A stretch of DNA of 64,000 nt, taken from contig OZ231126.1 of assembly GCA_965153355.1 (NCBI GenBank), positions 47,988,001-48,052,000 of the forward strand, given 5' to 3'. Positions 22,448 through 63,449 of this stretch are shown here, one piece after another. Position numbers and translations under genes: made by a program. Every line of letters begins with the position of its first letter. The stretch's first letter is position 1. The notes below the pieces were generated by a model. It was not told the DNA's origin. It did not search any database and saw nothing but the letters and a program-made list of their open reading frames with translations. The DNA is from Flaccisagitta enflata. Taxonomy: Eukaryota.

Positions 22448-23656
22448 TCCTTGGTTCTTCCTCTGTTTTTTGAGGCGGGACGGTGTGACTAGGTTGGAAT
22501 GGGATTCCAACGGGGGGACTGTGGAATATCGTTGATATTTTGGCATTTTTGGCGCCTTTGTACTGCGATCTACTTCATTGTCCTTTCGTTGGCATTGCTA
22601 TTTATTTGCTTGTGATGATATATTTGATTATCTGGATGCATTCTTTCTTTCAGTTAATCAGTGTATTTTAACAGCAATTCAACCTGGAAGCACTTAGATT
22701 TACAGTGGAACCTGTGGTGAGTGTACTTGGCTACATTTGTTGACAATTGCTTGAATTGGTTAAGATAGTTATGATGATGCATTAGCTAGTTAGAAGTAGG
22801 TATTAACCAATCCCTTTTCCCCCCCTCTCTTTTGTTTCTTTCTCTTTCTCTTCCTGTATATAATAGTTTAAATACACTTTCTTACCTAGATATCAGTGAT
22901 AGTATCCACAGACTGACGATGGGAACAACGCCACTGGAAGTGACGTTATCAGCGCAATTGGCGTGGTGATGGCGTTGTCAGACCGGACGTGGCGTCTTCA
23001 ACCGGAAGTTGCGTGGACGACAAGATCCTGATGACGGTACGAGACAGTATTTTCTACGGTTCTTTACACTCTGTGTCCCTCTGTGTCCCTCCGTGTCCCT
23101 CTGTGTCCCTCTGTGTCTCTACAAGAGGGCCCGTCCCACCGTCTCCAGGTTGACGCACAAAATGAATTTTCGGCTTCCAGATAATTTTCCGCAAAAGTGA
23201 TAGTCATTAAATTTGTTGGGTACAGTGAAAAATAAAGAAAGAATAAACTCCGCCAATTTTTTAATTTTTTTTCTTTTCCTTTTTATCTCATTATCGATTT
23301 TTATAAATTGAACGACATTCAATATGTGTCTACAAGACGAGATGACAAAAGCTGAGGATGCAACACCTTTCAACAACCCTTGGACCGCAGTTGATGAACT
23401 ATGCCGAGCGACGTGCTATCGACGTGGTTTTAGAATGCAACTTATTCGAAGGATAATATTCGCAAAAGTGTTAGATGTTCAGCGGTACCCCTTGCCCCTA
23501 TGTGAGTATATGTAGGTGTGTGTTTGTGAGAGGGGCAGCGGCCCCAAAGGGGCTGATGACCTACACATAGTAAGTTTTGAAGCTCAGACAGACAGACAGG
23601 CAGACAGACAGACAGACAGACAGAAGAGGAAACAAAGTTGGGGAGAGAGCGAGCGC

Positions 23657-37930: not shown

Positions 37931-40639
37931 CGTTTTAAATTGTTGAAATATAAATTACGCCCACGAGTTTCAACTGGCACTGTCTATGAGCGTCTATCTG
38001 ACTGACGACTTGTGGTGAAAGAAAGTTGGCCGATTGGAAAATAGGAAGATCGTCTCGTTTATTCCATAAAAATTTCAACAACTGAAGAGAGGGGGAAAAT
38101 GAAAGGAAAGTATGCGTTAATTGTGATCAGCAAACGCAAAAGATAACATGAAATCGAGATAGGACACAATAAAGGACAGAAACAGCACATGACAACATGT
38201 TCATCTTCTTCAGAGCCCATGCCACCTGATAATACCTGCCCCTGCCCCGGCCCATCCCATTAAATTCATCCATATCATCCCTATAGCAAGCTGATCGGAC
38301 AAGCGATAAAACCATACTAAAATCCGGCATAAAATGCAAAGGGCAAAAGACAAAATAACAGACCGGAAGACAAGATAAAAACAACGTTAATAAAAGCAGA
38401 AACGCGTCTATAAAACTTACTTTTAGGCCCACTTTCGTTGGTTTCAACCCACAGTCTGTCGATGTCAAATTAACGTTAATTGTCCGTTCATTAGTTTATC
38501 TGCAATAAAAAGATGAGAGATTATTGAAATTAGTGAATTCCAAGGGCGCATTCAAACGATCATAAAAATCAATCAATCACTCTAAGAAGCGATGCCGTAA
38601 ATAAATAAAATCAATCAATCCAAAAATTGGATGATACGAAAGACGAGTTACGTATATCTGCCTACGTAGTAAAAACAAATGGCACAAAATCAAGGCGCAA
38701 CCATATGGTTACCCATCTAGCGTTTAATATAAAAAATGGCAAGAAACAAAAGACACGGGCATCGAATAGTAGAGAAAGAGAAAAAGCCAAAAGCACGCAA
38801 AAGAGACAGAAGGCACACACACCTAAGAGACGGACAGACATACATTTCTAACAACACATATGGGAGATTTTCTCCTTCTTCTCCTCCTCCTTCTTCTTCA
38901 ACACACCCCTCCCCTCCCCCCAGCCACGAGGCCCATATCTCAGCCTCAAGGCCCATATCCCAGCCTCGAGGCCCAAATCCTAGTCTTGAGGCTCAAATCC
39001 CAACCTCCAGGCCTAAATCCCAGTCTTGAAGCCCAAATTCCTTGAGGCTGGAATTTGGGCCTTGGGGTGGGGATTTAGGCCTGGAGGTTGGGATTTTAGT
39101 CTCAAGACTAGGATTTGGGCTTTGATTTTTAATTGCGTATACATTGTCATGGCATCACTTCTTAACGGAACGAGTGACATTTTGCTTGATTTTCATGATG
39201 TGTGCCCTTGGAATTTCATGTCTTTCATAAGTCTCTCATCTCTTTTTACTTCAGAGACATATGAACGGACATCTGACCTTGATGATGATTATGACGCCGG
39301 TGGGGAACCACAGAAATTGGGCCTAAAGTAAGTTTTATCATTTTAGTGTTTTAGTGTTTTATCGTTGTTTTTGTCCTCTGGCTTTTTATTGTTTTATTGT
39401 CTGTTTTTATTGTTTTATCGTCTGTTCTTATCGTCTGTCCGGTCAACTGATTATTGGGGTGACATGGGTGAATTTAGTGGGATGGGCAGGGCGGGGGCAG
39501 TGTACTGATCTGGCTTCATGGCCTCTGCATAAGATGTACATGTTGTTATTGGCTGTTTCTGTTCATTGTCTATCCTGATCTCATGTTGTTTTCATGAATT
39601 GGTTGACCAATATTCATGCCCAATTTCCTTTTCTTTTTGTCCCCCTCTCAGATTGTTGAAATTTGTCCTGAAGAACAAGACCATCGTCAAGCCATTTTCC
39701 AATCTACGCCTAATTTCCTTTGCGTCTACCATCGTCAGACAGTCAGAGATTTCTACAAGACAAAGCTATCCCAGAGTCGAAACTAACGTTTACGTGGGCT
39801 AAATATAATGTCCCTCCGTGTCATATTGTGTCCCTCCGTGTCCCTCCGTGTCCCTCTGTGTCCCTCCATGTCTCTATAAGAAGGCCCGTCCATCCGTCCA
39901 TCAAGCCCGCCCGTCCCTCCATGTCCCTCCGTGTCCCTCCTTGTCCCTCCGTGTCCCTCTGTGTCCCTCCATGTCACTAAAAGAGGGCCTGTCTGTCCGT
40001 CCGTTGGGCCTGCCCGTCCCTCCGTGTCCTTCCGTGTCCTTCGTGTCTCTATAAGAGGGCCCGTCCAACCATCCGTCGGGCCCTCAGTGTTCCTCTGTGT
40101 CCCTCCGTTCCCTCTATGTCCCTCTGTGTCCCTCCGTGTCCCTCGGTGTCCCTCCATGTCCCTCCGTGTCCCTCCGTGTCCCTCTGTGTCTCTATAAGAG
40201 GGCCCATCCGTCCATTCATTGGGCCTGCCCGTCCCTCCATGTCCCTCCCTGTCCCTTTGTGTCCCTCTGTGTTCTTCCCTGTCCCTCCATCTCCCTCCAG
40301 GTCCCTCCGTGTCCCTCCGTGTCTCTATAAGAGGGCCCGTCCGTCCGTCCATTGGGCCCGCCCATCCCTCCGTGTTCCTCCATGTCCCTCTGTGTCCCTC
40401 TGTGTCCCTCCGTGTCCCTCTGTGTCCCTCTGTGTCCCTCTGTGTCCCTCCATGTCTCTAATAGATGGCCCGTCCGTCCGTCCTGCCCGCCCATCCCTCC
40501 CTGTCCCTCCGTGTCCCTCCTTGTCTCTATAAGAGGGCCTGTCCATCTGTCCATCGGGCCCGCCCGTCCCTCTGTGTCCCTCTGTGTGGAATATCGTTGA
40601 TATTTTGTCATTTTTGGCGCCTTTGTACTGCGATCTATT

Positions 40640-41525
40640 CAGGTAGTCCGCCAGCGAATTTGGGTGCGTTCAGCAACGGGGAATGAACGCCTGTTCAGCA
40701 ACAATACTATACAGGTGTTGATGAACACAATGAAAAAGACCTTTGCCCAACGATTTTGTTCAGAGAGGGCCATAAAAAGCGCGTTCATGAATGGCTAAAA
40801 AATCCACTCCACTAATAATTTTGTCTTCATACCCAATGTATATTATCTTCAGTCTTCACTGTAACATTTATCTACTTAATGAACAAAACTGTTCATCAAA
40901 AGATAAAATTTGGTATTCCATGAACAGCCAGATAAGCAACATTTATGGTTTAAGAATCATGAAGCTAGTGTCAAGTCTAATCCATTTATGGCAAAAAAAT
41001 CTCTTTCATATGTGCCCATAAAAGGTTCACTCAATCACTGGATTTTTTATCCACTCAATGAAATTTTGATATTCATGAACAGCCAAAAAGCAGTATTGAT
41101 GAACATAGTCTCAAGATCACTTCATCTCTAACAAAATATCTTTAAACCCAGCCATTCATGAAGAGTCAAAAAAGTTTCTTTAATAAACTCTTTGTTAGAT
41201 TAAACTAGATGCTCAAAACTGTTATCAAAAAACTTTTTTTTTGCTGTTCTTTAACAGCCAGATGAGCATGTGTCATGAACAGGTAAAAAATCCACTCCAC
41301 CAACAAAACCATTGGTGGAGTGTTTTTTTTACCTGTTCAGCAACGGCTTTTTTTACCCCTCAATGAACGGTCGTTCATGAACAGGTCTTTTTGGGCCCTC
41401 CATGAACAAAATCGTTTGCCAAGAGCCTCTTTTTAGTCGTTCATGAACAGCTCTATGGCATTGTTCAGCAACATGCGTTCATTCCCCGTTGATGAACACC
41501 CCCAAATTCGCTGGCGGACTATCTC
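40640..41525. mobile_element. 886-bp MITE with 8-bp TSD inserted in the 5' LTR of element A (hAT or P superfamily)
   Basis: TIRs caggtagtccgccagcgaatttggg / cccaaattcgctggcggactatctc; gatctatt duplicated at 40632-40639 and 41526-41533; many atgaac/gttcat subterminal motifs; the uninterrupted site is visible in the 3' LTRs. Confidence 0.9.
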
Positions 41526-42121
41526 GATCTATTTCATTGTCCTTTCGTTGGCATTGCTATTTATTTGCTTGTGATGATATATTTGATTATCTGGATGCAT
41601 TCTTTCTTTCAGTTAATCAGTGTATTTTAACAAGCAATTCAACCTGGAAGCACTTTGGGGATTACGGTGGAACCTGTGGTGAGTGTACTTGGCTACATTT
41701 GTTGACAATTGCTTGAATTGGTTAAGTTATGATGATGCACTAGCTAGTTAGAAGTAGGTATTAACCAATCCCTTTTCCCCCCCTCTCTTTTGTTTCTTTC
41801 TCTTTCTCTTCCTGTATATAATAGTTTAAATACACTTTCTTACCTAGATATCAGTGATAGTATCCACAGACTGACGATGGGAACAACGCCACTGGAAGTG
41901 ACGTTATCAGCGCAATTGGCGTGGTGATGGCGTTGTCAGACCGGACGTGGCGTCTTCAACCGGAAGTTGCGTGGACGACGAGATCCTGATGACGGTACGA
42001 GACAGTATTTTCTACGGTTCTTTACAGTATTTAAACACCAAAGCCGCTGGTGAAAATTGCTAACCCTATATCATTTCTCCCTACCATACATGAGCACAAC
42101 ACGTAGGTACCACCAGATACA

Positions 42122-44836: not shown

Positions 44837-47036
44837 CATGAGGCGCCTTCGACCAACTCCGTCTTCAAAGTCGGCGGCGACGACGGAGCGTGGAGGTTGA
44901 TACTGCCGCTGTACATAACAAACGGTGAAAGAAAAATAAAGACTTTTGCGTTGATGGATGGCGGCGCCAACCGACACGTTGTGTCAAAGGACTTGTGTAA
45001 AAAGCTAAAACTAAGTGGGAGGAAAACAGCGATGACGATAACCACCCTTGAGAAAATGGTGGAAGGGGAGAGGGAAGTGGCAGATGTGGTGGTTGAAGGC
45101 ACCAACGGCTACAGCATCACTCTCAACAACGCCATTTTTGGGGAGATTGTCGCATCAAAGGACAACAGACCGCCACGCGCTGAGGATGTCACTGGGATGG
45201 AACATCTCGCCGACCTGGAATTCCCTTCGTTTCCAGATGGCGACGACGGTTGCTCCATCGGCGTGATAATTGGCGCGGAACATGCCCGAATTTGGATCGG
45301 CGGAGAAACCCACAAAGGCGCCGAGGGCTTACCCATGGGAATTTCCACGCCGCTTGGCGCCGGTCTGATCGGCCCCAGAAACAATACTGACTCGCGATAT
45401 TTTGTTTGCAATTTTGCTTCCTTTCACAGCATTGATTCAGATCTGGTTAAAACCATAAAAAGAATAGATGCCGGTGAATTTGAAAAAGTGGACGAAAATA
45501 AGCGAGAAATGTCGCTCAGCGACAAATTTGCAATCCGCCAAATGAAGGAAGGCATCAGGTGGGATCCCATAACGGAACACTACCGTACTCCAGTCCTTCA
45601 TAAAGGCGGAAGGCAAGCAACAGCTGATGCACTAAACAATTTGGATTCCCCAACGATGGCCCTGGACCGCTTATTTTGCCTGAAAAAACAATTAATGCGG
45701 GACCCAGAAAGACGCCGAATAACATTCGAGACTATGGCAAAATTCTGGGAAAAAGGGCGCGTGAGGAAAATAGATCCAAATGAGCACGCCAACATGCCGC
45801 CAGATCAGCCTAGATGGACAATACCAATCCATGTGGCTGATAAACCTGGCAAACCAGGTCAAGTACGTATCTGCCACGATTGTAAGGCAGCAGTGGGAGG
45901 ATCAAGCCTTAACAACCAGCTCCTGGACGGGCCACAACTTGCCAACGACATCAGAGGTGTGTTGATGCGCTTCCGGTGTGAAGGCCCCGTCGCTGTGGGC
46001 GCGGACATTAAGGATTACTTCCACGTGATTTATGTCACCGAAGAGGACGCAGGTGTCTTCCGTTATTACTGGTTTCGCGACGAGAAAATGGAAGAAATTG
46101 AATTGAATGAGTTCCTTGGCCACATCTTCGGTGCAAAATCATCAAATTGTGTGGCAATTTTCACACTGCAACACCACGTGGAACAGCATTTGGCTGAATA
46201 TGGTCCCCTCGTGGTTCAAGCAGTGATGAGAAACATGTATATTGATGATTTGATAAAATCACTGCGCAACACCAAAGTGGCGTGGGCATCACGGCTGCCC
46301 TCGAGGACGCCGGAATGAATCTGTGCAAATGGAGATCAAGCCACCCGGAAGTCCTTGAAGGCGATACAACGGATCCGGCGCCGGCGGCGCCAGTAGATGT
46401 ATCCGGCGCCACCGAAGACACGACGAAATTGTTAGGCCTTAGATACTCTTTTTCTGCCGATGCCTTTTCCTTTTTGCCAGATAAAGCGAAAGCTGAAATG
46501 AATGTGCAAACCAAAAGACAAATGCTCAAACTGATCGCGTCAATATTTGACCCGTTGGGTTTTTTGGAACCATTTGTCATTTGGGCAAGGCTGATCTTGC
46601 AAAAAGTGTTACGCGTTGTCGAGAATTGGGATAGCAAAGACATTCCAAATGAGTCCCTCGCCGAATTTGTGGAATGGCAGATGAGCCTCAAATCCTTAGA
46701 GTCATTCCGCATATCGAGATGGACGGCGACGCTGGAGACGCAGGACGGCAGAAAAGTTCTCCACGGCTATTCGGACGCGAGTGGATGGGCGTATGGAGCC
46801 ATGTACTACGTCCGCTACGAAGGTCCAAATGGTGAGATTCACGTGTCCATCGTCTGCTCCAAATCCCACGTTGTCCCGCTAAAGGATGTGGTGGCTGGCC
46901 ACATGGAATCAACGCCGCGCTTGGAGCTTCAAGCAGCCCGTCTCGCGGCCAGAATGCGCGCCACCATAATTGAAGAAACAGGGAGTTATGATGGTTATGT
47001 AAACTGGACCGATTCAGAGTGTGTGATTAAGCAGCT
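44837..47036 (+). pseudogene. pol: Bel/Pao pol (protease, RT, partial RNase H), in frame with gag after one TGA; one frameshift near 46280
   Basis: LMDGGAN, ADIKDYF, YIDD, FDPLGF, YSDASGWAYGA, PRLELQAA, WTDSECV; 10-bp deletion relative to copy 2. Confidence 0.92.
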
Positions 47037-50000
47037 GTTTTTGAATGGCTGGTATGTCTGTCTGGTCTGTAATTAAATTAATAGCTACCTCTGATCCTGT
47101 CGCAAATGTGCTCATCATTGGAAGCCATGAGCGACTTGGGTCGACGTCATCTTGTCCATACTGCGCCAGTGCTTCTGACGCCGATAAATCCGGATGTGCT
47201 GCTGCTGCTGCTGCTGGTGATGGTAGTGCCGCTGCTGCGGCTGATGTCGATGCAGCAGAGTGATTTCCTCCAATCCACGGAGCAACGACTGCAGTCGCCG
47301 TTGGTGCCATCAAGGTGGCGTTTTTCATGGTCTTCAACTTTGGAGCCCTTTTTGTCCACGTGGTCTTTTTCGCCCGCCACCACTCTTTTCTTTTTTCGTT
47401 CGCGGTCATTTTGCCTGAAATTGAAAGAATGGTGGACAAGTCAGTATTTTCCCCCTTTTTAAGAGTAGGTTCTTCCGAAACTACATTGCACAGCGGGGAG
47501 ATTTTTTCTGCTTCTGTAGGCAAAATGCGTTTTCTAATATTTTCCCATGTTTCAGCTGAATGGCGTGATAAACTGTCAACTGGTTTCATATAATTAGAGC
47601 TACCTTTTTTATATATCACAGTAGTATTTTCTTTGTCTAAGACTGAATCTAAAAACTCAATGAGCCTATGCTGCCTTAGATATTTGCCACTAAAACCTAA
47701 TTTTAAAGACGTTAATGCCTGGCAATCAATTCTAATTATTACCTTTGTAAACCTAAGATAGTAATAAAATTTGCGAATTGCATAGTACAAACCTAATAAC
47801 TCCCTCTCTGAGCTTCCTGCCTTCCGTTCTGTTTCATTGAAAGCTCTACTTCCAAATGCAATTGGTACCTCTAGCCTTTTTATCTTTTTACTAGGAAATT
47901 CTATATCTTTTATTTGTGATAGGGAGTAGCCTACGCCCTCACCAGAAGAATCACAGGTCACTATCATTTCAGTATCATAAGTTGGGTGAGCTAATTGGGT
48001 AGCATTAACTATTTGACCTCTGACCTTATCAAAGGCCTTTGTATGTTCTTCTGTCCAGTAACTTTCAATTCTTTCGGGAAATTCTTTTTTAAGTAGATTA
48101 TACAAGCATTTTACTGTTAAGCCGTATCCTTCACAAAAATTTCTATAGTAATTAGTAAACCCCAAAAATCTCATTATTTCCTTTTTTGTTTTAAGTGGCC
48201 TGTGCCAATTTTCTAGTACAGCAGTTTTAGATTTTTCTATGCTTATAAAGCTCTTGTCGGTATATAAGCCTAAAACCATAGTTCCATGTGTAAAAAGTTC
48301 TAGTTTATCTAAACGTATTTTAACATTGTATTTAACTAGTTTTGAAAAAACTACCTTAAGTACTTTCCAATGAAAATCTGACCCGCCTTCAAAAGTGAAA
48401 ACGAACCAGTCGTCTACATACACGGCGACAAATTCTCTCACCTTTTTGCCATCAATGACCTCATCAATGCTTTCTACAATTTTGTTCATGCAGACCTGAA
48501 AGCTATTTGCACTACAGTACAAACCTTGCACAGTTCTCACATAAGCTAGATTACCTACATCGTTTGCCGTCGTGGTATGTAGGTACTTAATGCAATCACG
48601 ATTGACTGCTACTGAGAAAAAACCTTGATTTATATCAAATTTTGATAGGAACTCAAATCCTTGCATTTTATTTCTTAGTGTTTCTATAAATGGTAAGTTA
48701 GAAGACTGTGGTTTGCATATGGAATTAATCAATCTTGCGTCAGAAACAAGACGATATCCTTTTAAAGAAGAATAATCATTTTTACCTGGTTTCTTGACTA
48801 AAAAATTGCACATTCTGAATGCGCTTGCTTCCTCAGCCTTAATAAAAACTCCTGCACGGAGCAAATGCTCCTCCATTCTAGCTAATAGTTTTTGTTCCGG
48901 TAGGCTTTTCTTATAATTATTCTGGTAGGCACGCTTATTTTCATGAACCTCGAATTTTGTATTATGGAATTCGTACGGCACGCTGCCGATATCGTAGTTA
49001 TGACGCGAAAAGCATGGCCTATATTCTTGAATCTCTTTTCTAACTCTACTTTGTAAGTTTTTGTCACACATATTTAAATTTAGATCCTTTGAGTCGAGAT
49101 TGAAAAATTCATAGTCATGGAACTCGTCTATAGGTCTTTCTACTTCATCTAAAATCCTATAAATTGTTTCTGCTTCATCATCTGAGGGTCTTTCCCACAA
49201 AAATTCAAATTTAGGTTCCATGCATACGTCCTCATTATTAATGAATAACTCGGCTAAATTGAACAGTTTCTCACCTTTTCCGCGCTGTTGGGAGCCGCCT
49301 TTGAAACGCTGATTGGTCGCTGAACTTGCTTGCGTGATTGGCATCACCGCCATCGGCGATGCAGACATCGTCGTCGCGTTATTCGTCATCGGCATCGTCG
49401 TCGTCGGCATCCTCGTCATCGTTGTCCCCGCTGCGATTGGCCTCGTCGACATTGTTGATGTTATTGCCGGCGCTACCGGCGCTACCGGCGCTACCGGCGC
49501 TACCGGCGTCATCGGCGCCACCACTGTTGTCGGCGGCGTCGCCGTTACTGTCGTTGACTTCGCTGTTGTTGCCGCTGTTTCTGCTTCTGTTTCTAATGTG
49601 TCGAGAAAGTCTTCTATTTCGCGGAAGAGAGTGCTGTCCGGCGTTGCGATTGGCGAACCCAAAAGCCTTTCTTCATCCTGTATTAGGGGTTTTGGGGGAA
49701 ATGATTCTTTAATCAATTTGATATGGTCAGAAGAAGGAGATTTGTTTACAAATTTTGTATATTTTATTTCACTTTTCCCTGATGGAGCATAAATGGTTAA
49801 TGTTTTTGACTCCATGTCGATTTTTGTTTTTAGTTTTTCCATGAGACTCAAACCTATAATAGGATAGTCCCAAGCTAGATCTGCATTTACAACGAAAAAG
49901 TCAGTTTTTAGATCTATGTCTCCTATTCTAAGTCCAAACAAACCTATTCCTGCCCCTGGGATGCTATTTCCAGTTGCACCAACTAAATTTATCTCATTAT

Positions 50001-50238
50001 TTAACGGTTTCAAATCAATTGCAAAATGTTTCTCTTTTTCAGAAATAAGTGACCAATTTGAGCCAGTATCTGCTAAAGCAGTTATTATTTTATCCTTAAA
50101 TCCTGTCTTTCTAAGGGTGATCTTTATAAAGATCCCCTTTTTACCCAATTTATTAATATTATCTTGATTATTTCTGTCTTTTACTTCTGCCCAGAGTCTT
50201 TGAAGTTCTGGCCTCGATAGTTTAAAGAATTTGGGCAT
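47037..50238 (-). CDS. pol: Ty3/Gypsy Pol (aspartic protease, RT, RNase H), truncated before integrase
   Basis: ALADTGS, RLVSDARLIN, KFDINQGFF, YVDDW, RFLGFTNYYRNF, TCDSSGEGVG, SERELLG, RIDCQAL, VDSLSR; open for over 1000 codons. Confidence 0.95.
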
Positions 50239-52247
50239 CTAGCCTTGATATGACCTAATTTACCACACCGGTAACATTTAGTGTTTGATAAGTCCACAGC
50301 TGAAACCTTTTCTTGGGTTTTCTCTTGTTTTTGTAATTCTCTGTCCTGAGTACCAGCATTATTTCTCCTTTCTTGCCTATCTGGATTGTACATTCTAACT
50401 ACTGGCAACTTTCCTTTGTAAGGAGTCAAACGTTGTTCTCTTTTTGAAACATTATGTGGTTGTTGGTTTCTAATGTTATTCATAGTAATATCATTTCTAG
50501 GTTGAGCTTCTAAGATTAGCGAGTTGGACATCGCTTCCTCCATATTTTTTGGCATGGAAAGCCTTAAATTAGCTTTTAAAGGATGTGCTAGTCCATCTAA
50601 AAACCTAAACAGGACTAGGTTATCAATTGTATTTGGTGGTAGGCCTACAAAGCACTGAGTACTTAGTCTTTTTAACTCTAGACCATATTCAAAAGCCTTT
50701 TCTCCACTTCGTTGCCTTCTTGCATTGAACAATTGTAAGGCTGTGGTCTGATTGGTTGAACTTACTGCTTTAATGAACAAATCAATAATCTGATTTAGGG
50801 TTAGATTTGTATTTTTTGTTTCATCTTCTGTCATAATTGAATCCAAAGTACTATAGTAAGGCTCAATTACACTTGTACTAAGTCTGGCTAGTCCCTTTGC
50901 CTTTTTGACTTCTCCTGCGCTAAAAGCGCGTTTTACTATTTTGCCCCATGTCTCCACTGGGAGAGACGCTGAACCAGTATACTTAGGAATCTGAATAGCA
51001 CTGGGTGACTCTACTTTTACGGACACTTCGTCTCCTTCTACTTCTATTTCTTGAGCTTGAGCTGCTTGTTTTGCGTTATTTCCACTATTGTTGCTACTAC
51101 TATTGCCACTACTGCTGCTACTATTGCCACTATTGTTGCTACTATTAGCAGCAGGGCTTTCTACAGTAACTGACCTTCTGCTTCTAGATTTAGGAATTTT
51201 ACTCATCAGATCCTGATTTTCTAACTTTAACCTCGCTATTTCAGCTTTCATTTTTTCTATCTCACTACCGCTATTGTTATTAGTCGCTACTCTCACCTCT
51301 TCAGTCATGCTGTTGCTTGATGGACTACTTGACGGATTGCTCGATGTTTCTTCCACGGCCAAGATTTTGTCATCTGAGAATAGAACAGTTGGTTCAAAGT
51401 TTATTTCCTCTTTAATGGGGAATATTTTTTCTTCATATCTTTTATTTTTGTTTCCCACATTCACAACCAAATCGAAGTGATCTTCTTTCATTTCTTCAAG
51501 TTTTAAGAATGTGATTAACCTATTTATATTGTACATCTCATCGTGACTTATGTCCAAATAGGAAGCTCCACTCAATATCTCAGAGAATTCACTAGCACCA
51601 AGATCTCTGAAGATTATTTTTTCTTCATGGATTCCCTTTTGCAGGTCTAAATAGCCTGGGAAACCGTCATTTGGTGATTTATACCCTTTTCTGTAGGCCT
51701 CAATTGTGTTCATGATTGGTTTGTCTTGTTTTTGAAAGATATTATCTAAGTCGGTTACCTTGGTCATTTTTTCGTTAAAATCTAATCTAATTATTTGCAT
51801 ATTATGGTCATCATTGCATTTTCGATGACAACAGCTAACCATTTTGTTTTTTATGATAAAACGTATGTCATCTTCTCCACACACTTTAAAATTGAAAGCT
51901 GTGACATGTTCTCCTTCGTTACATTTATCGAAACAGTAGCAAGTTTTCACAGTTTTGATATTGTTTTTTATTTTATATAAAAGAATGCCATCTCCTGGTC
52001 TTATGTATTTTCTTATTTCTTTGATCACTCCGTTTTTGTCAAATGTTAGTCCTAGTTTTATGTCATAATGAGAGTTAGAAAATGACAGATACTCATTTTG
52101 GTGTGTGTCGGCAATTTCTGCCATTTCCTTAAAACCCAGGGTAAACACATCACCATCTCCAGTAAAACTCGTCACACTTCTTTTCATCTTACTAAAAGGG
52201 TGTTTTTTAGAAACTAAAGGAAAATTCTTCAGCTCTAATATATGTCC
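50181..52247 (-). CDS. gag: C-terminal part of giant ORF1: Cys-rich region, Gag capsid and CCHC zinc knuckle
   Basis: IPKYTGS..VETW, RRQRSGEKAFEYGLEL, FRFLDGL, PKNMEEA, CYRCGKLGHIKARC. The first ~70 aa of the tracked ORF (52460-52248) come from an inserted repeat. Confidence 0.9.
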   Translation of the reverse strand, partial: GHILELKNFPLVSKKHPFSKMKRSVTSFTGDGDVFTLGFKEMAEIADTHQNEYLSFSNSHYDIKLGLTFDKNGVIKEIRKYIRPGDGILLYKIKNNIKTVKTCYCFDKCNEGEHVTAFNFKVCGEDDIRFIIKNKMVSCCHRKCNDDHNMQIIRLDFNEKMTKVTDLDNIFQKQDKPIMNTIEAYRKGYKSPNDGFPGYLDLQKGIHEEKIIFRDLGASEFSEILSGASYLDISHDEMYNINRLITFLKLEEMKEDHFDLVVNVGNKNKRYEEKIFPIKEEINFEPTVLFSDDKILAVEETSSNPSSSPSSNSMTEEVRVATNNNSGSEIEKMKAEIARLKLENQDLMSKIPKSRSRRSVTVESPAANSSNNSGNSSSSSGNSSSNNSGNNAKQAAQAQEIEVEGDEVSVKVESPSAIQIPKYTGSASLPVETWGKIVKRAFSAGEVKKAKGLARLSTSVIEPYYSTLDSIMTEDETKNTNLTLNQIIDLFIKAVSSTNQTTALQLFNARRQRSGEKAFEYGLELKRLSTQCFVGLPPNTIDNLVLFRFLDGLAHPLKANLRLSMPKNMEEAMSNSLILEAQPRNDITMNNIRNQQPHNVSKREQRLTPYKGKLPVVRMYNPDRQERRNNAGTQDRELQKQEKTQEKVSAVDLSNTKCYRCGKLGHIKARCPNSLNYRGQNFKDSGQK
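50220..50226 (-). promoter_or_regulatory. -1 ribosomal frameshift slippery heptamer U UUA AAC
   Basis: Lies in the gag/pol overlap, phased X XXY YYZ in the gag frame; pol is in the -1 frame. Confidence 0.8.
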
Positions 52248-52716
52248 TTTTGGGCAGCGGCCCCGAAGGGGCCGATGACCTATGCTTTCACACAGGGGAA
52301 TTTTCTCCTCCTTCTTCTCCTTCTCCTCCTTCGTACCCCCCCTACCACTTCGAGACCTAAATCTTAACCTCAAGGTGTAAATCCCAGCCTTGAGGCCCAA
52401 ATCCCAGCCTTGAGGCCCAAATCCCAGCCTCAAGGCCCAAATCCCAGCCTCAAGGCCCAAATCCCAGCCTCAAGGCCCAAATCCCAGCCTCAGGCCCAAA
52501 TTTCAGCCCCAAGACCCAAATCCCAATCTAAGGGCTAAAATCCAAGCCTCCAGGCTCAAATCCCAGCCTCCAGACTCAAATCCAAGCCTCCCGGCCCTAA
52601 TCCCAGCCTTTAGGCTCAAATAAAATCAGCATAGGTCATCGGTCCCTTCACCTCACACCCACATACACTCATAGGGGCAACGGGTACCGCTGACCATCTA
52701 ACGCTTTTGCGACTAT
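52248..52716. mobile_element. Helentron/HINE-like insertion with 21-bp tandem repeat (aggcccaaatcccagcctc..) splitting ORF1
   Basis: Both ends match the dispersed module at 8230-8340 and 25780-25829; T runs at both junctions, no TSD. Confidence 0.8.
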
Positions 52717-55700
52717 TTCAGTTGCCTTGAACCCTAACATCATCAAATCAAAACTGTCCTCATATATAGTTGGCAATTTCTCAGCTAATTGAGGTTCCGG
52801 TCTTTCATGATAGAATGTTTCCTTCTTCCCAACGGGACTTTTGTTTTTTCTAGTTCCTTCGATCCTTTTAACACGCCCTCTCTGGTTTCTATACACAACT
52901 ATGCGATTGTTGTCTCTTATATGGTCGTAATGGTAATCACCACTTTTCTTTATACTTTTGGACGTTCTATCCAAGTATTGTTCTATTGTCTCTTTTGAGT
53001 TCAGTGTCTCTATTTTTCCTCTTTCAATTTCATCACAAATCACACTGATAACTTCATCTTTACCATAGTCCTCCTCTCTTCCCCTCTGATCTTGATCACT
53101 GACCCTATCTTTTCCCCTCTGATCTTGATCACTGCTCTTATCAAGATCTGCGATATGATTTATTTGACTCAAATAACTTTTATTTTCTATTGGTTTAACA
53201 CAATCACAGGTTCGAGTGATACATTTTGAAATATCAGTGTCTTGAGATTTGATTTCCTCAGGTTTCATTTTTTCAGCTCCTGTCATTGAACGGAAAAAGA
53301 TTTCTTGATCTAGATCATTGGTTAAATCCGTGATTTTATGAAATTTTCCCCTAAAAAAGTCGTAATTAGGCGAGAGGTCAGGGGTCATTGACCTTGAGGG
53401 AAAGATTTTGAAATCAGCAGGTTCAAGTTTCAGTTGTTTCATTGGTTGATTAATGAAATATATATTTATATCTCCACCTTTGCTCTTTTCCACGACCAAA
53501 AACATTTCATGAACAACATTGCTTTTACCATCTATCTGAAATTGCTCATAAAATTGATGATACTTAACTAGTTTATCATTTACAAAAATGTGTTGTAATA
53601 GACCATTACGGAAAAATTTCATAGTGATATCCATAGTCTTTAACCAAGTCTTATCGATTTTTATTTGGGTTTTATAGCTGTACTTATTTGTTATAATATC
53701 CTTGAAGTCATTCGTTTCATTATTTTCTTCCCATTTTTTAATCAGGTTTTCTGTCACAACTGGTCTAACTTGACCCTCTTTCTCATAAATCTCAATTTTT
53801 ACCCCCTTTCCATCATTAGCAGTTTTTGCAGTGTAACGGAAAGGCTTGTAGATGTCTTCAGTAGCTCGTGTTTTGTATAAATATTCATTTTTATGATTTT
53901 TAGATGTAAAAGTGTAATCTGTTATTCCTAACCTTTCTTGGCCCTTAATGATAAACACGTCTGAAATGCTATCCTTAACCTTTTGTTTTAAGACCTCCCA
54001 GTCGTCTTCTGGGTCCCCGCTTTGTTCTACAAAAATATTATCTTTGGTCAAACAAATTAAGTCCTTTTGATCGAGGTTGGTTTCCATTTTAGAATTGAAC
54101 TTATTGATTAATTTTAGGTCCTCATGAAACTTATAATCAAACACGATTTGGGGTCTCATTTTAGGAAGTTTTGCGAATTTCCAATTTAATTGTCCTTTAA
54201 ATGCGTCTAAAAATAGCTCCGCGCAGTCATTTTTTCCAGAGTTCGGTTCTTTTGTTTTTTGTCTTATGATTTTTTCACAGATTGGTTTTTGTTCAAATTC
54301 CATATTTTCGTCGTCTCGATATTCGTTCACATCTTTTATTGCCATGACTTCTAGGTCATGGTTTAGAGATTCATTGATTTCCATTTCTTCCCTTTTTTTG
54401 TTCTCTTGTTTACCGTGATTATGATTATTGATATTTTCATTTGGACTGACTTCATTTTTATCATTGTTTTTATTTTCAAGCTCCTCATTATCACAATTAT
54501 CATCATGATTTTTGTCGTAATCAAGTCCATCATCATGATCGGCTTCATACTCACGCTCGTCACAATGATCACCGCCGTTATCATTTACAGTGTCATTTCC
54601 ACGATCTTCACTATCATTGCCAGGACTGTCATCACCTCCATTGCCACATTCATCTTGATCATCATCATGGTTATCACCATCATAGCCGTGACTGTCATCA
54701 TGATCATCACCATCATCATTGTGATTATCATCATAATCATCACCGTCATAGCTGTGACTATCATCATGATTATCATCACGACCACTATCATCATTTCCAT
54801 CATCCTGGTCACTGTCATCATCTCCATCATTTTCACTATCATCACTTTCACCGGAATAATCATCATCATCCCAATCATCATCCTCTGAGTAGTAAGTATC
54901 TGAGTCATAACTCTCATTGACTCCTTCTACAATGGCTTCCTCATTGATAGTGTGTAGCAATCTGTAGTCTAAACTGGATAACGGGATTTCCTCACTTCTT
55001 TCTTGTGCGTTCATGACTACGTATCTGCAATTCAAATTCCATTTAGCATGTTCTGTGAATGGGTCATCATCTGCCTTCCAACAGCTAAGACGAAGCTTGC
55101 AACCTACACACACTACTTTGTCTTCTATATAATTTAAGGAGGAACAAAAACAGTTAGGCTCATGGTTAATTAAACTTGGTGGGTAATAGGTTTTCAAAAA
55201 ACCCATGGATGCTAAAGTTACTGGGTTAGAGAGTTTTCCTGCGGGCCATTTACTCTTTTGAAAGCTCTTTATCCTTCGGGCCCTGTTGAAGAGTTCTGTT
55301 GTTTTATTCCCAAATGTCACAAACTTAGTCCTTCTTTTCTTCCCTTCTAAACATGCCCATATCTCAACGGGATGAGTGAAAAAACCTTGACTTACAGTCA
55401 TTCCGTCCTCATATCTTTTTATCGCGTCAACCCATTCCTTCCTAGGCTTTTCAGGGACATGAGTCAGAAATCTTGATACTAACTCTGCTGCTTCCCCACA
55501 TGCAAGAGCCTCATCCTCTTTGTCAGGATAATTATCAATTTGATGTTCACAGAACTTCGTTCCAATATTCTCAACTTCATTCTCATAGATACATTCATTC
55601 TCACACAGCATTCCTTCCACGTGATTCGCGCAGTATACGTGTTCTGCACAGTACTTTTCTGACGCAATGATGTCTGCTATCTGGTTTGTTAGTTTGTTTA

Positions 55701-56770
55701 TTTCGTCTTCCTTCTTTACGTAAGGGAGTAAATATTTTGGGAAATCATCTTGAAATTCACTTTTTATCTTTTGTAAATGTCTTAATACTTTTGTCATGAC
55801 TGGCCTTGGGTCGGCTGGAATGGCCATGTCCTCGATAATAGGTAATGTTAAACCTGGGATCCCAAGATGCAATCCAGATAAAAAGAAAACCCCATAGTAA
55901 GAGCCAAGTTGTTGGCGCCTGATGCGTACTATCTGAGTCGGTTCAAAGAAACCCTTAGCAGATAGGCTATCTTTTTTCAAACTTGGATTTAGGTACCAAA
56001 ATTCTCCTAAGTGATCGACATAAGAACCTACGTTTAGAGTAGGCAAAAATGTTGGCTCTTGACAAACAAAACATCGACATTCCTTTGCATGTATTTTTTC
56101 CCCATAGACTATCCTCTTGTCTTCCATGCCTTTTGCTAAACCAGCCAGCTCGAGGGCTCTTGATATGTTATATTGAGTTAAGGTTTGGTTTCTTTTTTTC
56201 TCACTAATTGGGATATTTTCATAAATTTCTTCAAAATTATTGGCAGAGCCACTAGAGCGATATTCTACTCTGCCCATATTCCAATTATTCCCGTTGCTAA
56301 ATTCATATAATTCCTGCAACTCTTTGCTGTCTAGAAGTAAAGGCATTACTAACCGTTTAGGTTTGATTCCATGCTGGATCCTGAAAATTTTTTCTTGCGG
56401 GATGTTAGTTGTACTTTCGTTGGTCTTAGTTTGATTTTGATTTTCACAATTGTTTTCACTTAAATTTCGTTCGTTGCAGTTGATTTCATTTATTATTGTT
56501 TTTAATTTAGAAATGATTTTAAGCGTAATTGCGATCAAGTCCTTCGTTTTTATTTCTTTAACGCCCTTAACGCATTCTGATATGAGATTCACTTCTTTAG
56601 CATCATTCGAGGTCAGGTCGTCTCCTTCAGACATCGTTAAAATCTTAATCTCTAACTTTTGTAAGTCAGTAAAAATCTCGTCTGGATTTGGGTTTTGTGA
56701 TTCCCAGTGATGCGGAACATTAGAACACGAGTCCTCTGAATGCGTTGTATACGGCTGTTGTTGTTCATGC

Positions 56771-56851
<81 letters not shown>

Positions 56852-57981
56852 AACAAAACAATTAATCGATTCACATTTTGAAAATTTGGTTCATCGGCGA
56901 AAATCGTTGATATTGTTTGTATTGTTGTAGTCACTACTTCTTGAGCGTATTGGCTGCAAGATTGCATTTGCAGCTCAGTGGCTTTTGCGTCTGCCACTCT
57001 TTGAAGAAGCTCCAGACTTTTCTCTTGCCACTCACCTTTCAGTCTCATTCTCTCATTCAGACTTTCAGTCGTAATAGACGGATCATCGATCGGTGGCTGA
57101 TTTTGCAGCTCTGAATTTATGTTAATGAGAGCCAAAATTGTTTCATATATTTCATTTCTATTCATACCAATGCTAGACCTCGTCTGAATGCCATTTGCGT
57201 CATTCATCTCAATTGCATCTTTTATTTGAAATGCTACATTCTCAGTTAGCGAGTTCGCAGAGAGCAAATTCTCGCCTTCTATCCTTTTTCCTTCCATGTA
57301 AAGTTCATGGAACTGATTTTTATCAAAAGTTTTAGGCTCAGGAGCCCCGTAGAGATACCAATCCCTAGCTTCTGCCCCTTTCACCTCCTCTATCGTGAAC
57401 ACTTTGTTTTGTTTTGTCTTAATTTCCATAGGTTTTTTCATTTTATGATACAAATGGCTCAATCTTTCTGCTATTTTGTCCTTTGAATTGTCACATACAT
57501 GCCTGTTGGCCTTTGCCTTAAAGGCTGGACGAGAAATTTCAAGAATATCAAAAATGTTTTTTATTTCTTTTATTTTCTCTGTTTCTAGGAATTTTAGTAT
57601 TCTAGCCTCAGATCTTTTCTGCATCTCCCTTGATACGATTTTAGTTGGATCGGAACACCCACAGTCGATCTCAGATACACCCTCAATAATGGTTTCCTTT
57701 TTGGTTGTTATTGCCTCCTGCAATTCAGTCACAATTTTGTCAATCAGTTCGAGATAAATCAGATGATTAAAGCCTTGAGAGTTCTCTAATTCTTCTCCCC
57801 CCATCACAGCAGCTTCCATCATAGAGGTGAGTAAGTAAATGCGATCTCTAACAAAAAGCGGTACCTTTGGCTCGATTTTCATGCATTCATCTAACAGTTG
57901 TGTCATAGATTGGTGAAACTTTACTTCTAGTTTGCCTTCTCTATTGATCTCTATTGTCGCGTTATTGCAACGGGATTCCAT
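52717..57981 (-). CDS. N-terminal part of giant ORF1: polyQ, BIR domain, Asp-rich tract, unknown domains
   Basis: 1755 open codons; (CAA)n at 56770-56850; BIR motif RIKSF..KWP..LASMGF..VVCVGC..W..DDPFTEH..C at ~55018-55278; D-rich 54480-54890. Confidence 0.88.
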
Positions 57982-60162: not shown

Positions 60163-60561
60163 CTATTCAACGATAAAGGTGCAAGTTGGGGAGTATTTTT
60201 CATGCTCGTACATTGCAACATCTCCTGGCTCCCAATCTCTCAGTTCAAGTTTACAACAGAAGCATCTAACCAACCCTCTGTACATTTCGATCATATAGAA
60301 ACCTGCACTCGCAAGAAGCAATGGGGTTTGGGAACGATTACAAGGCCAGTCACGGAAAGAGTTAAGACGGTGTCTTAGAATCGAATAATCGGGATCGTTA
60401 AGAGAATAAGCAGGGAAGTCTTGAAAAGGGTGCTCTTCATTCTCAGCCATATTTACATTTGATGGTATAGAAACTTTTCTTCTTTTAAAAACAATGTTCT
60501 TAATTCTTCTTTTTTTCAAAAAGGCTTTTAATCTTTGTTTTTTACTACTTCCAGTAACCAT
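60163..60561 (-). CDS. Single-BIR inhibitor-of-apoptosis-like protein with basic N-terminus
   Basis: RLNSFRDWP..LASAGFY..VRCFCC..LRDWEPGD..EHEKYSPTCTF; AATAAA on the coding strand at ~60149-60154 and ~60077-60082. Confidence 0.9.
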   Translation of the reverse strand: MVTGSSKKQRLKAFLKKRRIKNIVFKRRKVSIPSNVNMAENEEHPFQDFPAYSLNDPDYSILRHRLNSFRDWPCNRSQTPLLLASAGFYMIEMYRGLVRCFCCKLELRDWEPGDVAMYEHEKYSPTCTFIVE

Positions 60562-60567: not shown

Positions 60568-60625
60568 AATCAGTGACGCCAGATATCAGTGACATCAATC
60601 AGTGACGCCAGATATCAGTGACATC
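60568..60625. repeat. Perfect 29-bp tandem duplication just upstream of the BIR gene
   Basis: aatcagtgacgccagatatcagtgacatc occurs twice. Confidence 0.9.
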
Positions 60626-61092
60626 AATCATCAACTTGCATAGAATTTTTTTGTTTTTCGTCTCTGTCTTCGCCGTTTAACTATAGTTCTTTTCACTCCA
60701 CGTAACGCGTCTTTGCGTGCGCCGGCACCCTGGGACAAAATAGGAAAAAATACAATGTTTATTTCTATGCATGTAGAAAAAGGAGGTGTCATATTATGTC
60801 TGTATGTATGTGATATAGGACATGTATATGTACTTTTGTTCTGCGTCTGCGTCTACGTCGTCTATTTCTGTTTCCTTTTCGTTTTCTTCTTCTACGTCTC
60901 ATTTTAGTTTTGTTGTTCCCTTTTTTTCGTGAATGAATGAGTTCTCTAATAAAAGATTTAAAAAAATAACAAATGATTTCGTTGATTGCTTATTTAGTGG
61001 TTTAAGCTGTTCATAACGATGATTAGACAACGGTTTGGAATGAGTTTTACCTGTTCAATACCTTTAATTGAAGGTCTTGTGCCTCCATGCAA

Positions 61093-61557
61093 TTATCCTC
61101 CAAAGCCACACGTGTCCAAATTAAGATATCTCAGCGAATATTGCCGAGTTTTGGCGTTTTTGCAGATCAGAGTCAGAGTTTTTGTTTTATTGTTGACTAC
61201 GCAGGTCGCGATTGATTGTTGTGCAGTCGGATATTCGTGACGCGATTCAATTTCAATGAGGTCTGAGAAGTACTTGGTTTGCGCGATGTTGGATGCAAAC
61301 TGGGTGGTCAGCAATATTAGCAAAACGGCAAAGAAGACAAAGCCAACTTTCCTGGGGCGTAATGGCATGTTAGGGTCAGGGTGGTCAGGGAAATGAGTTG
61401 GCGGGACAGTTTCAGTTCCACTACTGGGATTTGTGTGTGGGATTAAAAGAAATCTTGGCGGTGTTGGTCTTGGACATTCTGATTCAACTTTTTTTGGTTC
61501 AGTTGATTCAGGATTTGCTTGCTTTCCACTTTCCATCTGCGAAATTAGATAAATCAA
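61093..61557 (-). CDS. Small putative type II membrane protein, unknown function
   Basis: Pro-rich N-terminus, RPRK followed by VGFVFFAVLLILLTT, C-terminal domain with three Cys. Confidence 0.6.
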   Translation of the reverse strand: MIYLISQMESGKQANPESTEPKKVESECPRPTPPRFLLIPHTNPSSGTETVPPTHFPDHPDPNMPLRPRKVGFVFFAVLLILLTTQFASNIAQTKYFSDLIEIESRHEYPTAQQSIATCVVNNKTKTLTLICKNAKTRQYSLRYLNLDTCGFGG

Positions 61558-61786
61558 ATCATAGGCGTGGCGTGGTATAAAAGGATGTACTATGTATTCT
61601 AATAACTATGAAAGCGTAAAGCAACATATGATTCATGCGAGATAATTGATCTAGGCGATGTTAAGTCATTTAAGACACTTAAGGTCATGTTCAATACTAA
61701 GATGACATTGCAAAATATGATTATGTTTAACTGTAAGCATTTTAAGCGTTTAACTGTAAGCGTTTAAATGCAAGCACTGTAAGCAC

Positions 61787-62668
61787 TTAAGTGTAAGTGT
61801 CTTTTTTCCTAAACGCAAGCGTGAAAGTGAAAGGCTTCATGAAGTCCAGTTGGTCTGGACTGGCAGTTAACAAATGAAGAAAAAGAGGAATAGAAGTAAC
61901 AAATAGAAAAAATTTTCGATCTTTAAGAAAGTCCTTATTTTCCCTAAATGCAACTTGAAGAGCATGGATCTCTTTTTCTCGCACACTTTTTTCACGCAAA
62001 TGAGGAGGCATCTCTTCTCTAAATGTGTTTACAATGATACGAAAGCCAGATCGCAATTCAACAAACAGAAGATGAGCTATTTCGGATTCTGACGTGTCAA
62101 CGAAGAGGATTAAGGTTCTTCCAGGTCCGGTTGAGAGAATGTTGTCATCAGCAGAGACAGATCCTAGAACGTCTGCGGCGGAGATAGGTCCACCAGGCCC
62201 ACCAGGTCCACCAGGTCCAAAAGGTCCTCCAGAGGCGGAGCCAGCTCCTTTAACGTCAGAGGCGGAGTCGGGTTCTTGAACGTCAGAGGCGAAGCCGTGT
62301 CCTTGAACGTCAGAGGCGGAGCCGGAGCCGGAGCCGAAGCTGGAGCTAGAGGCAGAGGCAGAGCCAGAGCCAGAGCCAGAGCCTCTGAAAGAGCCGAAAG
62401 CCTCCAAAAGCTTTTGAAAGAGATCTTCGGGTTCAACAGATGGAATCTCATCAGGAATGTCATCTTGTGATTTATTCTCTTCGATGTTTTCTTGTGGTTC
62501 TCCACTTTCATCTATATCGTTTTCTCGTGGTTTATCCATATCGATGCCTTCATCAACATCAATTAGAGAGTGTGTCGGACACTCTGAGAAAAGTTTGTTG
62601 TAAAAGTTGGACAAAGTTTTTGCAATGTGAAGAATTGGCAACCAAAGAAGGGAAACAATAGTTGCCAT
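61787..62668 (-). CDS. 293-aa protein with a C-terminal divergent Ty3/Gypsy-type RNase H-like domain
   Basis: LILFVDTS...KSVREKEIHALQVAF...FLKDRKFFLFVTSIPL...FTFTLAFRK follows the Gypsy RNase H motif order. Confidence 0.65.
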   Translation of the reverse strand: MATIVSLLWLPILHIAKTLSNFYNKLFSECPTHSLIDVDEGIDMDKPRENDIDESGEPQENIEENKSQDDIPDEIPSVEPEDLFQKLLEAFGSFRGSGSGSGSASASSSSFGSGSGSASDVQGHGFASDVQEPDSASDVKGAGSASGGPFGPGGPGGPGGPISAADVLGSVSADDNILSTGPGRTLILFVDTSESEIAHLLFVELRSGFRIIVNTFREEMPPHLREKSVREKEIHALQVAFRENKDFLKDRKFFLFVTSIPLFLHLLTASPDQLDFMKPFTFTLAFRKKDTYT

Positions 62669-63234
62669 AACTCAGATTTCACTACATTAAGACAGAAACC
62701 CAAATTCACATAATTTATAAGCACGGCGAAGGATGTATTTTTCTCGTTCCAATAATTCTTTAAAAGCTGTTTTAATTTAACAAAATGCGGGATGTTGTGT
62801 ACTGTAAAAAATCGCAAATTAAAAATAAAAAAATAACCGCAGCCTAAATTTTTTCGAGATTGTGTAACCAGATTAAAATGCGACAATGAAAGATGACGAG
62901 TGCTACAAAATGTGTCAATAGTATTTCTTATATCCTTTTTATCTTTATAAACACTTGCTAAACTATCGATAAGTAAACAATGTCTATTTTGGTCCCGTAG
63001 GTCTAAGGCCAGAAGGAGCCAATGACCAGTGGTCTGATAGATTTCCTGTGAATGTGAAGAATTGAGCACTATGGCCATTTTCCTCTTTTTTGAAAAGATA
63101 TTATGTTTTAATGTTAAAAGTTTGTCATAAGGAATGATAAGGGCGCCATTACCAATAAATTTCAACGCTTTAGGAATCTTTTTTAAATATCTGATTAAGT
63201 CTTTGTCCGTGGTTATGAGTTCTTTCGATGACAT
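62563..63234 (-). CDS. Adenain-like (C5/Ulp1 clan) cysteine protease of Polinton type
   Basis: IVLNS..GHWLLL..LIDSLA..TQ..GCGYF gives His/Asp/Gln/Cys in the expected order; likely start MSSKELI at 63234; C-terminus uncertain. Confidence 0.85.
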   Translation of the reverse strand: MSSKELITTDKDLIRYLKKIPKALKFIGNGALIIPYDKLLTLKHNIFSKKRKMAIVLNSSHSQEIYQTTGHWLLLALDLRDQNRHCLLIDSLASVYKDKKDIRNTIDTFCSTRHLSLSHFNLVTQSRKNLGCGYFFIFNLRFFTVHNIPHFVKLKQLLKNYWNEKNTSFAVLINYVNLGFCLNVVKSELWQLLFPFFGCQFFTLQKLCPTFTTNFSQSVRHTL

Positions 63235-63449
63235 TTTGTTACTGTTGTTTGTTGCTGCTGTTACTGTTGTTGTTGCTGTCGTGTTATTGGTCGTGCTCAA
63301 AATTTCTAATACACGTGCGATCACTCAGTACACCCATAGACCGAGATTGAAAATAAATAACTATCACGTGAATCACGCTATGAAAAAGAGAAAAAAAAAG
63401 AAATTAACCACAAAAAAAAAAAAAACAAGAAAAAAAAAACTGGTATCCA

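Follow-up and report, generated by a model that had tools for sequence, protein, structure and literature searches.

Gypsy-type ribonuclease H (RNase H) domains that have lost the catalytic Asp-Glu-Asp-Asp (DEDD) residues are described, in the available part of PMC4408406, as the connection or tether domain of retroviruses and as gRNH in the Tat elements of plants. Both keep the fold after DEDD loss, presumably in a structural or binding role, and both lie inside pol beside a second, active RNase H. The available part of PMC8502044 describes adintoviruses, the animal Polintons, with an Adenain protease, IAP and Bcl2 homologues and tightly packed, nearly overlapping arrays of open reading frames (ORFs), often endogenised and degraded. 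The planarian Burro elements are giant Gypsy-like retroelements that combine gag-pol with BIR, BCL2 and SUMO-like domains and with upstream accessory ORFs (PMC6431247, as far as its available part goes). The subject of this report is ORF293, a gene for a 293-aa protein in a 64,000-nt stretch of the Flaccisagitta enflata genome (GenBank assembly GCA_965153355.1, contig OZ231126.1, positions 47,988,001 to 48,052,000). This whole stretch is called the window, and positions are counted from its first letter. ORF293 appears to carry a degenerate Gypsy-type RNase H domain as a separate gene with its own start and stop, unlike the tether and gRNH domains. The last Asp, which Tat gRNH keeps, lies in a segment that the ORF293 clade has lost.

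ORF293 is best explained as an intact gene of a small, lineage-restricted, multi-copy family, with a domain descended from the Ty3/Gypsy-type RNase H of reverse transcriptases (RTs) and a place in the intronless, same-strand array of a virus-like mobile element. The probability of this explanation as a whole is put at roughly 0.6. No description of a stand-alone Gypsy-type RNase H gene, in a DNA virus or as a retroelement accessory, was found in the collection of open-access papers and preprints searched. Degenerate Gypsy-type RNase H is already known; a conserved stand-alone gene with an anchor, a linker and a virus-type protease as neighbor is new as far as these sources show. Such a gene would put a retroelement enzyme fold to a new kind of use.

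ORF293 and its protein family

ORF293 is complete, and its product is divided into three parts. The initial annotation had singled out 61787-62120, which is the 3' third of the gene (residues ~184-293).

61787..62668, minus strand: the whole of ORF293, stop codon included, with a hydrophobic helix, an acidic Gly/Ser linker and a putative pseudo-RNase H domain
62588..62668, minus strand: residues 1-27, hydrophobic or amphipathic N-terminus (MATIVSLLWLPILHIAKTLSNFYNKLF), conserved in the alignment
62120..62587, minus strand: residues 28-183, acidic Gly/Ser/Pro-rich linker of variable length, partly composed of 27-nt repeats
61811..62119, minus strand: residues 184-286, RNase H-like fold, from AlphaFold2, Foldseek, sub-threshold Pfam matches and residue mapping

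A word-seeded search of 5.8 billion proteins (E <= 0.001, proteins of 161-513 aa considered) was used to collect homologues. The search returned 37 proteins from ENA records, encoded on contigs of 1.3-4.2 kb, the closest of which (P0002) is 91% identical over 100% of the query. All 37 share their start (MATI(I/V)SLLW...) and their end in the alignment. One clade contains 16 clusters at 90% identity, and this wealth of near-identical variants points to a family present in many copies. A profile of the N-terminus and the domain was run against 1.84 billion representatives and found 14 proteins at E <= 0.001, representatives at the 50% identity level, all of 107-483 aa and none with an RT. A search limited to 514-2000 aa found no relative in that size range. 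The absence of relatives of 514-2000 aa and the small size of all representatives indicate that the RNase H-like domain is stand-alone across the family.

Both termini of the protein are conserved family-wide. M1, A2, S6, L8 and L19 are invariant in the family alignment, F22, Y23 and N24 are nearly so, and the N-terminal consensus reads MATI(I/V)SLLWSPL...LSNFYNKLF. Small stand-alone distant relatives are without this motif. The C-terminal block of ~115 residues is 47-96% identical to the window protein across clades. The linker differs in length and is unalignable between clades. Residues 31-180 have a net charge of -23 and a G/S/A/P content of 49%, and four copies of repeat family D6 lie inside the linker at 27-nt spacing (62146-62325). 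The acidic, Gly/Ser-rich linker with a hydrophobic start that the initial annotation had described is borne out by this composition and by the conserved N-terminus.

A ~9-nt motif (minus strand, GCTTACAGT-like) is present four times at 61700-61790, within the 90 nt directly 3' of the ORF293 stop. There is no canonical AATAAA between this stop and the next ORF.

Fold and catalytic residues of the C-terminal domain

AlphaFold2 was used to model residues 165-293 from a 37-row alignment. The model has a predicted local distance difference test (pLDDT) score of 84.2 and a predicted template modeling (pTM) score of 0.76. Its elements, five strands in a mixed sheet plus helices, follow the order β1 (184-192), β2 (196-205), β3 (210-219), αA (229-243), β4 (252-257), αB (260-268), αD (271-277) and β5 (281-286). 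Foldseek comparison with the PDB gave 20 matches at E <= 0.001, led by the RTs of cauliflower mosaic virus (CaMV; 8r0s_A, E = 1.8e-6, query-based TM score (TMq) = 0.65), Ty3 (4ol8, E = 6.7e-6) and Moloney murine leukemia virus; cellular RNase H1 enzymes come after the RTs, from E = 1.7e-4. The same comparison with BFVD gave 58 matches at E <= 0.001, led by the RT or pol of a metavirus-like insect virus and many Caulimoviridae (E = 1.8e-8, TMq = 0.73). The nearest ESM Atlas clusters are RT_RNaseH families at 0.85-0.86, which are taken as a lead only. The initial annotation had proposed a Foldseek comparison of the domain with RNase H, and the fold match was found with the CaMV and Ty3 RTs in first place. 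The structural identification of the C-terminal domain as an RNase H fold, nearest to the Ty3/Gypsy and caulimovirus RT type, is solid at the level of the predicted model.

Sequence motifs and weak profile matches point in the same direction. The four motifs from which the initial annotation had recognized the Gypsy series, VDTS, SVREKEIHAL, FLKDRKFFLFVTSIPL and FTFTLAFRK, are all present in the ORF293 translation. Distant family members (P0036-38 and P0041-47) have VD(A/T)(S/T)E on β1 and extend beyond β5 in a tail containing (P/A)(D/N)ILS(R), which reads, among others, ANILSR in P0044 and PDILS in P0037, P0038 and P0041. The RNase H of a Ty3-type pol in the window begins with CDSS and ends with PVDSLSR. 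The tail of the distant members matches PVDSLSR, the counterpart of the ADALSR signature that closes the RNase H of Gypsy. Pfam matches to RT_RNaseH_2 and RT_RNaseH recur at E <= 1 in 18/21 and 17/21 aligned members, many of which are near-identical, and no third family recurs. The RT_RNaseH families are also matched by 5 of 12 distant members, the best being P0043 at E = 4.6e-5 and 24.0 bits against a cut-off of 24.8.

ORF293 resembles the RT RNase H of Ty3/Gypsy elements (Metaviridae) and Caulimoviridae (4ol8, 8r0s), its best structural matches, in its fold and element order, in the DAS-type motif on β1 and the Glu on helix A, and, in distant members, in the C-terminal (D/N)xLS(R). Unlike these domains, ORF293 lies outside pol with no RT attached, scores below the Pfam cut-offs, is fused to a hydrophobic helix and an acidic linker, and is missing the third and fourth catalytic Asp residues.

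Catalytic positions were mapped against the Ty3-type pol of the window and across 17 aligned representatives. The first Asp is D191, which is kept in 13 of the 17; the position is T in P0037 and P0038, and the region is missing from two N-terminally truncated sequences. The Glu is E233; most of the 17 share it, three have D and two have N or Q. At the third Asp position stands T258, which aligns with the window pol without gaps (RIDCQAL versus FVTSIPL) and precedes the invariant S259. Across the representatives this position is T, P or S, then S, and it is never acidic in any member. The fourth Asp position falls in the tail, where three distant members have D and others N, K, G or Q. The window clade has no such segment and ends 7 residues past β5. 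Loss of the third carboxylate abolishes hydrolysis in RNase H enzymes. Replacement of the third acidic residue by Thr, termination of the ORF before the fourth and inactivation of the domain had all been proposed from the sequence, and each agrees with this mapping: T258 aligns without a gap, the stop falls just after β5, and the third Asp is replaced in all members seen.

Several observations weigh against an inactivated domain of Ty3/Gypsy descent. The best Pfam scores of ORF293 itself are below threshold: RT_RNaseH_2 (PF17919) aligns residues 182-254 to profile positions 27-99 of 100 at E = 0.0042 and 17.5 bits (cut-off 29.8), and RT_RNaseH (PF17917) aligns residues 183-257 to positions 3-77 of 105 at E = 0.0077 and 16.8 bits (cut-off 24.8). 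An RT_RNaseH match is absent in 7 of the 12 distant members scanned. BLASTP of ORF293 against the Ty3-type pol 12 kb away gave nothing meaningful. The family hidden Markov model, run against 836 six-frame pieces of the window, retrieved ORF293 alone; the next piece had E = 0.4, and the pol RNase H was missed. Alignment of the family to the window pol by hhalign was not significant in either of two runs, with E = 0.27 on the helix-A region (pol 793-829) and E = 0.18 outside the RNase H region. In the PDB, searches with family profiles turned up no RT: one profile returned only linker junk, and the domain-centered one reached a best E of 0.51. Because many proteins share the RNase H fold, the resemblance could also reflect convergence or descent from a different RNase H-like lineage. 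Conservation of D191 and E233 makes a residual or altered metal-dependent activity possible, and these two residues may leave room for residual metal or substrate binding. Given the weak sequence scores, the RNase H assignment rests mainly on the predicted structure, the weak recurrent Pfam matches and the motifs.

The adjoining protease and the minus-strand neighborhood

The ORF directly upstream of ORF293 encodes a cysteine protease.

62752..63234, minus strand: Ulp1/adenain-like (clan CE) cysteine protease, in-frame part, M31-Y191 of a 253-aa ORF (62563..63324), Peptidase_C48
62687..62755, minus strand: last 22 conserved protease codons and stop, displaced into the ORF293 frame, located against homologues
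62669..62686, minus strand: 18-nt spacer from the conserved protease stop to the ORF293 ATG, located by comparison with homologues

The window ORF matches Peptidase_C48 at E = 9.2e-4 and, with 19.5 bits, stays below the cut-off of 20.7. A homology search gave eight relatives, 133-216 aa long. Peptidase_C48 is matched by 9/9 proteins of the family (best E = 1e-5), ElaD/SseL-like by 4/9, and H101-W102, D120, Q155 and C162-G163 do not vary. In the ESM Atlas, the look-alikes at 0.94 fall in clusters of mostly viral proteins (Nucleocytoviricota), and at 0.91 the protease stands beside Preplasmiviricota clusters, some with members carrying Peptidase_C5. The protease profile found nothing relevant in the PDB. 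AlphaFold2 modeling from a shallow 9-row alignment gave a pLDDT of 52.1. In BFVD this poor model has one match at E <= 0.001, to a Ulp-like protein of an entomopoxvirus (TMq = 0.37); Sputnik V9 (8.6e-3) and adintovirus Adenain (E = 0.5) come next, and the search is uninformative beyond clan CE. Judged by its sequence, the window protease is adenain/Ulp1-like, with the adenain subtype itself as a candidate.

The protease frame is broken in the window copy. Its homologues end ...KNYSLLEREKYIL..YKLCKFG.LS, and the window frame breaks after ...LLKNY at ~62752. The shifted frame runs on to 62563, and the displaced conserved stop lies at 62687-62689. The apparent 106-nt overlap between the protease and ORF293 arises because of this break. 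The ancestral arrangement, as reconstructed from the homologues, is protease stop, 18 nt, ORF293 start. The placement of ORF293 directly after a virus-type protease in the initial annotation holds with this clan CE neighbor and its viral look-alike clusters. Upstream of the protease, 676 nt of the window remain. The source contigs of the protease and ORF293 homologues never coincide in size, a proxy for co-location that is uninformative either way.

Between 63324 and 47014 every large ORF is on the minus strand, in an AT-rich block (GC 0.36-0.39). The ORFs downstream of ORF293 are as follows.

61093..61557, minus strand: 154-aa ORF with one hydrophobic segment (GFVFFAVLLILLTTQFA) and a Pro-rich N-terminal part, no Pfam or family match
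60163..60561, minus strand: 132-aa BIR (IAP-repeat) ORF, BIR E = 5e-19, 1.2 kb downstream of ORF293
52669..57981, minus strand: 1770-aa intronless BIR ORF, BIR at residues 903-988, E = 1.2e-12
50181..52187, minus strand: gag, 668 aa, with an unusual 400-aa N-terminal extension and one CCHC knuckle
47014..50238, minus strand: Ty3-type protease-RT-RNase H pol, 1074 aa, E = 2.6e-20 to Ty3 Gag-Pol

Just upstream of the ATG of the 132-aa BIR ORF, at 60570-60630 (minus strand), stands a tandem pair of a ~29-nt motif (TGATGTCACTGATATCTGGCGTCACTGAT-like) that may be a promoter element. The region at 58.9-60.1 kb is a stretch of ~1.2 kb without ORFs. The 1770-aa BIR ORF and the Ty3-type gag-pol lie 3.8-16 kb downstream of ORF293 on the same strand. 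The 1770-aa ORF, directly upstream of gag, contains a long poly-Gln run and a long Asp-rich low-complexity stretch in addition to its BIR, and its remaining ~1600 residues have no recognizable domain. The gag N-terminus has no significant similarity to the 1770-aa ORF. The 211 residues after the pol RNase H gave no integrase match, and pol is cut at 47037, where a Pao fragment begins. A ~470-bp insert of ~17 copies of a 20-bp unit lies between the 1770-aa ORF and gag (52248-52717); arrays related to it occur at 10786-10902 and 38855-39125, and further copies of its flanks lie at 8228-8336 and 23455-23563. The left flank of the insert covers the last 16 codons of the 1770-aa ORF, so the end of this ORF may not be original.

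Carrier element and proposed function

Pfam scans for the hallmark genes of a carrier covered 69/136 stop-to-stop ORFs of at least 100 aa (nested overlaps and earlier-scanned ORFs left out) and the large ORFs in segments. No protein-primed PolB (PF03175-type) was found in the ORFs scanned, and neither an FtsK-type packaging ATPase nor a double or single jelly-roll capsid gave a Pfam match, although Pfam covers such capsids poorly. Nor was a Polinton-type rve integrase found in them; the only integrase-type matches in the window (Integrase_H2C2 and DUF5641) lie at 18.7-20.3 kb in a Pao element. No terminal inverted repeat was found at 40-64 kb, and at most one end of such a pair could fall inside the window. 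Nor was a direct repeat of the long terminal repeat (LTR) type found in this region, and the 3' LTR would in any case be gone where pol is cut at 47037. Rfam and tRNA scans covering the window were negative. The initial label of the locus as a Polinton-like gene cluster is not upheld by these scans.

ORF293 may nevertheless be an accessory gene of a Polinton/Maverick (adintovirus-like) or mid-size DNA virus that has captured a retrotransposon RNase H, with the rest of the virus beyond 64000; this carrier is proposed tentatively, at rather less than even odds. The 676 nt of window upstream of the protease mean that such an element could continue past position 64000. An adenain/Ulp1-like protease directly upstream across an 18-nt spacer, its look-alikes among DNA-virus clusters, the BIR gene 1.2 kb downstream and packed intronless ORFs all resemble the published adintovirus pattern (PMC8502044, available part), and the broken protease frame fits an endogenised, degraded copy. 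The locus departs from that pattern in that no PolB, integrase of that type, ATPase or capsid was seen in the window, nor an inverted repeat at 40-64 kb. The poor protease model, with its one weak viral match, also counts against a DNA virus, as does the available text of PMC8502044, in which RNase H occurs 0 times and no RNase H-like accessory gene is mentioned. A DNA-virus carrier would document gene flow from retroelements to DNA viruses. The same-strand 1770-aa BIR protein and Ty3-type gag-pol mean that ORF293 could equally be read as the upstream accessory ORF of a giant Ty3/Gypsy-like retroelement, carrying a duplicated and decayed RNase H, with the protease and the BIR gene also accessory. 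Protease, ORF293, BIR, 1770-aa BIR, gag and pol all run on the minus strand from 63324 to 47014 in a block of uniformly low GC, and no LTR was found between those ORFs. This arrangement recalls Burro, in which Ty3-type gag-pol goes with giant ORFs that bear BIR domains and with accessory ORFs upstream that are linked to apoptosis and ubiquitin/SUMO (PMC6431247, available part). Burro's gag forms the N-terminus of its giant ORF1; in the window, gag is a separate ORF after the BIR ORF, and the available part of PMC6431247 describes neither an Ulp1-like protease nor a stand-alone RNase H. No LTR was found at 40-64 kb, though the 3' part of the element is cut off by the Pao fragment and an LTR pair would be lost from view anyway; the array is interrupted by the ORF-free ~1.2 kb and the ~470-bp repeat insertion; the domain has no detectable similarity to the RNase H of the neighboring pol; and the protease look-alikes are DNA-virus proteins. 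A giant retroelement is considered unlikely as the carrier; if it were the carrier, the accessory gene would have come from a duplication of the element's own RNase H. Between the two, a DNA virus is slightly favored by the 18-nt spacing and by a protease of DNA-virus type.

Two further explanations dispense with a mobile carrier. ORF293 could belong to a host gene family with a domesticated retroelement RNase H and no current link to a mobile element, its neighbors being coincidental in a repeat-rich region. The gene is intact while the adjoining protease frame is broken, its domain is strongly conserved, and its distant relatives include small stand-alone proteins without the N-terminal motif. 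The 16 clusters at 90% identity within one clade suggest that it is multi-copy, a distance of 18 nt from the protease would be unusual for independent eukaryotic genes, and the family is tiny (14 representatives), which together make a host gene rather improbable. A chance ORF or a decayed LTR-retrotransposon pol fragment would suit a window full of retroelement debris and a linker with simple repeats. This explanation is scarcely credible: it is contradicted by full-length conservation of start, domain and stop in the 37 homologues, by the confident fold and by the clean flanks. A scan of 58-64 kb at a threshold of E <= 10 found no remnants of RT, integrase or gag worth calling (best E = 0.068). 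The absence of such remnants and the conserved termini indicate that ORF293 is not a decayed pol fragment. The initial annotation had named a decayed LTR insertion in the flanks as the finding that would overturn it, and no sign of one appeared; its statement that no RT accompanies the domain stands for these flanks and for the family.

The product of ORF293 is most likely a non-catalytic binding module of a virus-like mobile element rather than an enzyme, by analogy with the retroviral tether. The hydrophobic N-terminal helix would hold the protein at a membrane or particle. The acidic, disordered and fast-evolving Gly/Ser-rich linker would act as a flexible tether that gives the domain reach. 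The pseudo-RNase H domain would no longer cut RNA and would serve to bind an RNA/DNA hybrid, duplex nucleic acid or a protein partner. A parallel is found in the retroviral connection domain, a surviving Gypsy-type RNase H that has degenerated (PMC4408406, available part).

A more specific proposal, which is regarded as a long shot, makes ORF293 a pseudo-enzyme decoy. A dead Ty3-type RNase H, with a hydrophobic-helix anchor and a DNA-mimicking acidic linker, would bind RNA/DNA hybrids or RT and would thereby interfere with competing Ty3/Gypsy elements or mask replication intermediates from host sensing. The adjoining protease might cut at the Gly-Gly-rich end of the linker and release the domain from its anchor. 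SGG-type motifs stand just before the domain in several clades of the alignment, and these may be chance occurrences in a G/S-rich sequence. If correct, the decoy would be the first case of a retroelement RNase H that stands alone and has been co-opted as an effector without catalysis.

Other repeats and retroelement traces occur elsewhere in the window. A 506-bp segment is present in three copies that are 97-99% identical (7326-7831, 22566-23068 and 41525-42026); to judge by where they lie, they may be LTRs of Pao/BEL elements. Recent insertion is suggested by the 96-99% identity between the Pao coding parts at 12.6-18.5 kb and 44.4-47.0 kb. A short ORF at 10121-10519 (minus strand) has a sub-threshold match to RT_RNaseH_2 (E = 7.8e-4) and is probably debris of another retroelement, unrelated to ORF293. 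A GC-rich array at 40000-40600 consists of 10-bp units (GTCCCTC-type) nested in a ~133-bp higher-order repeat.

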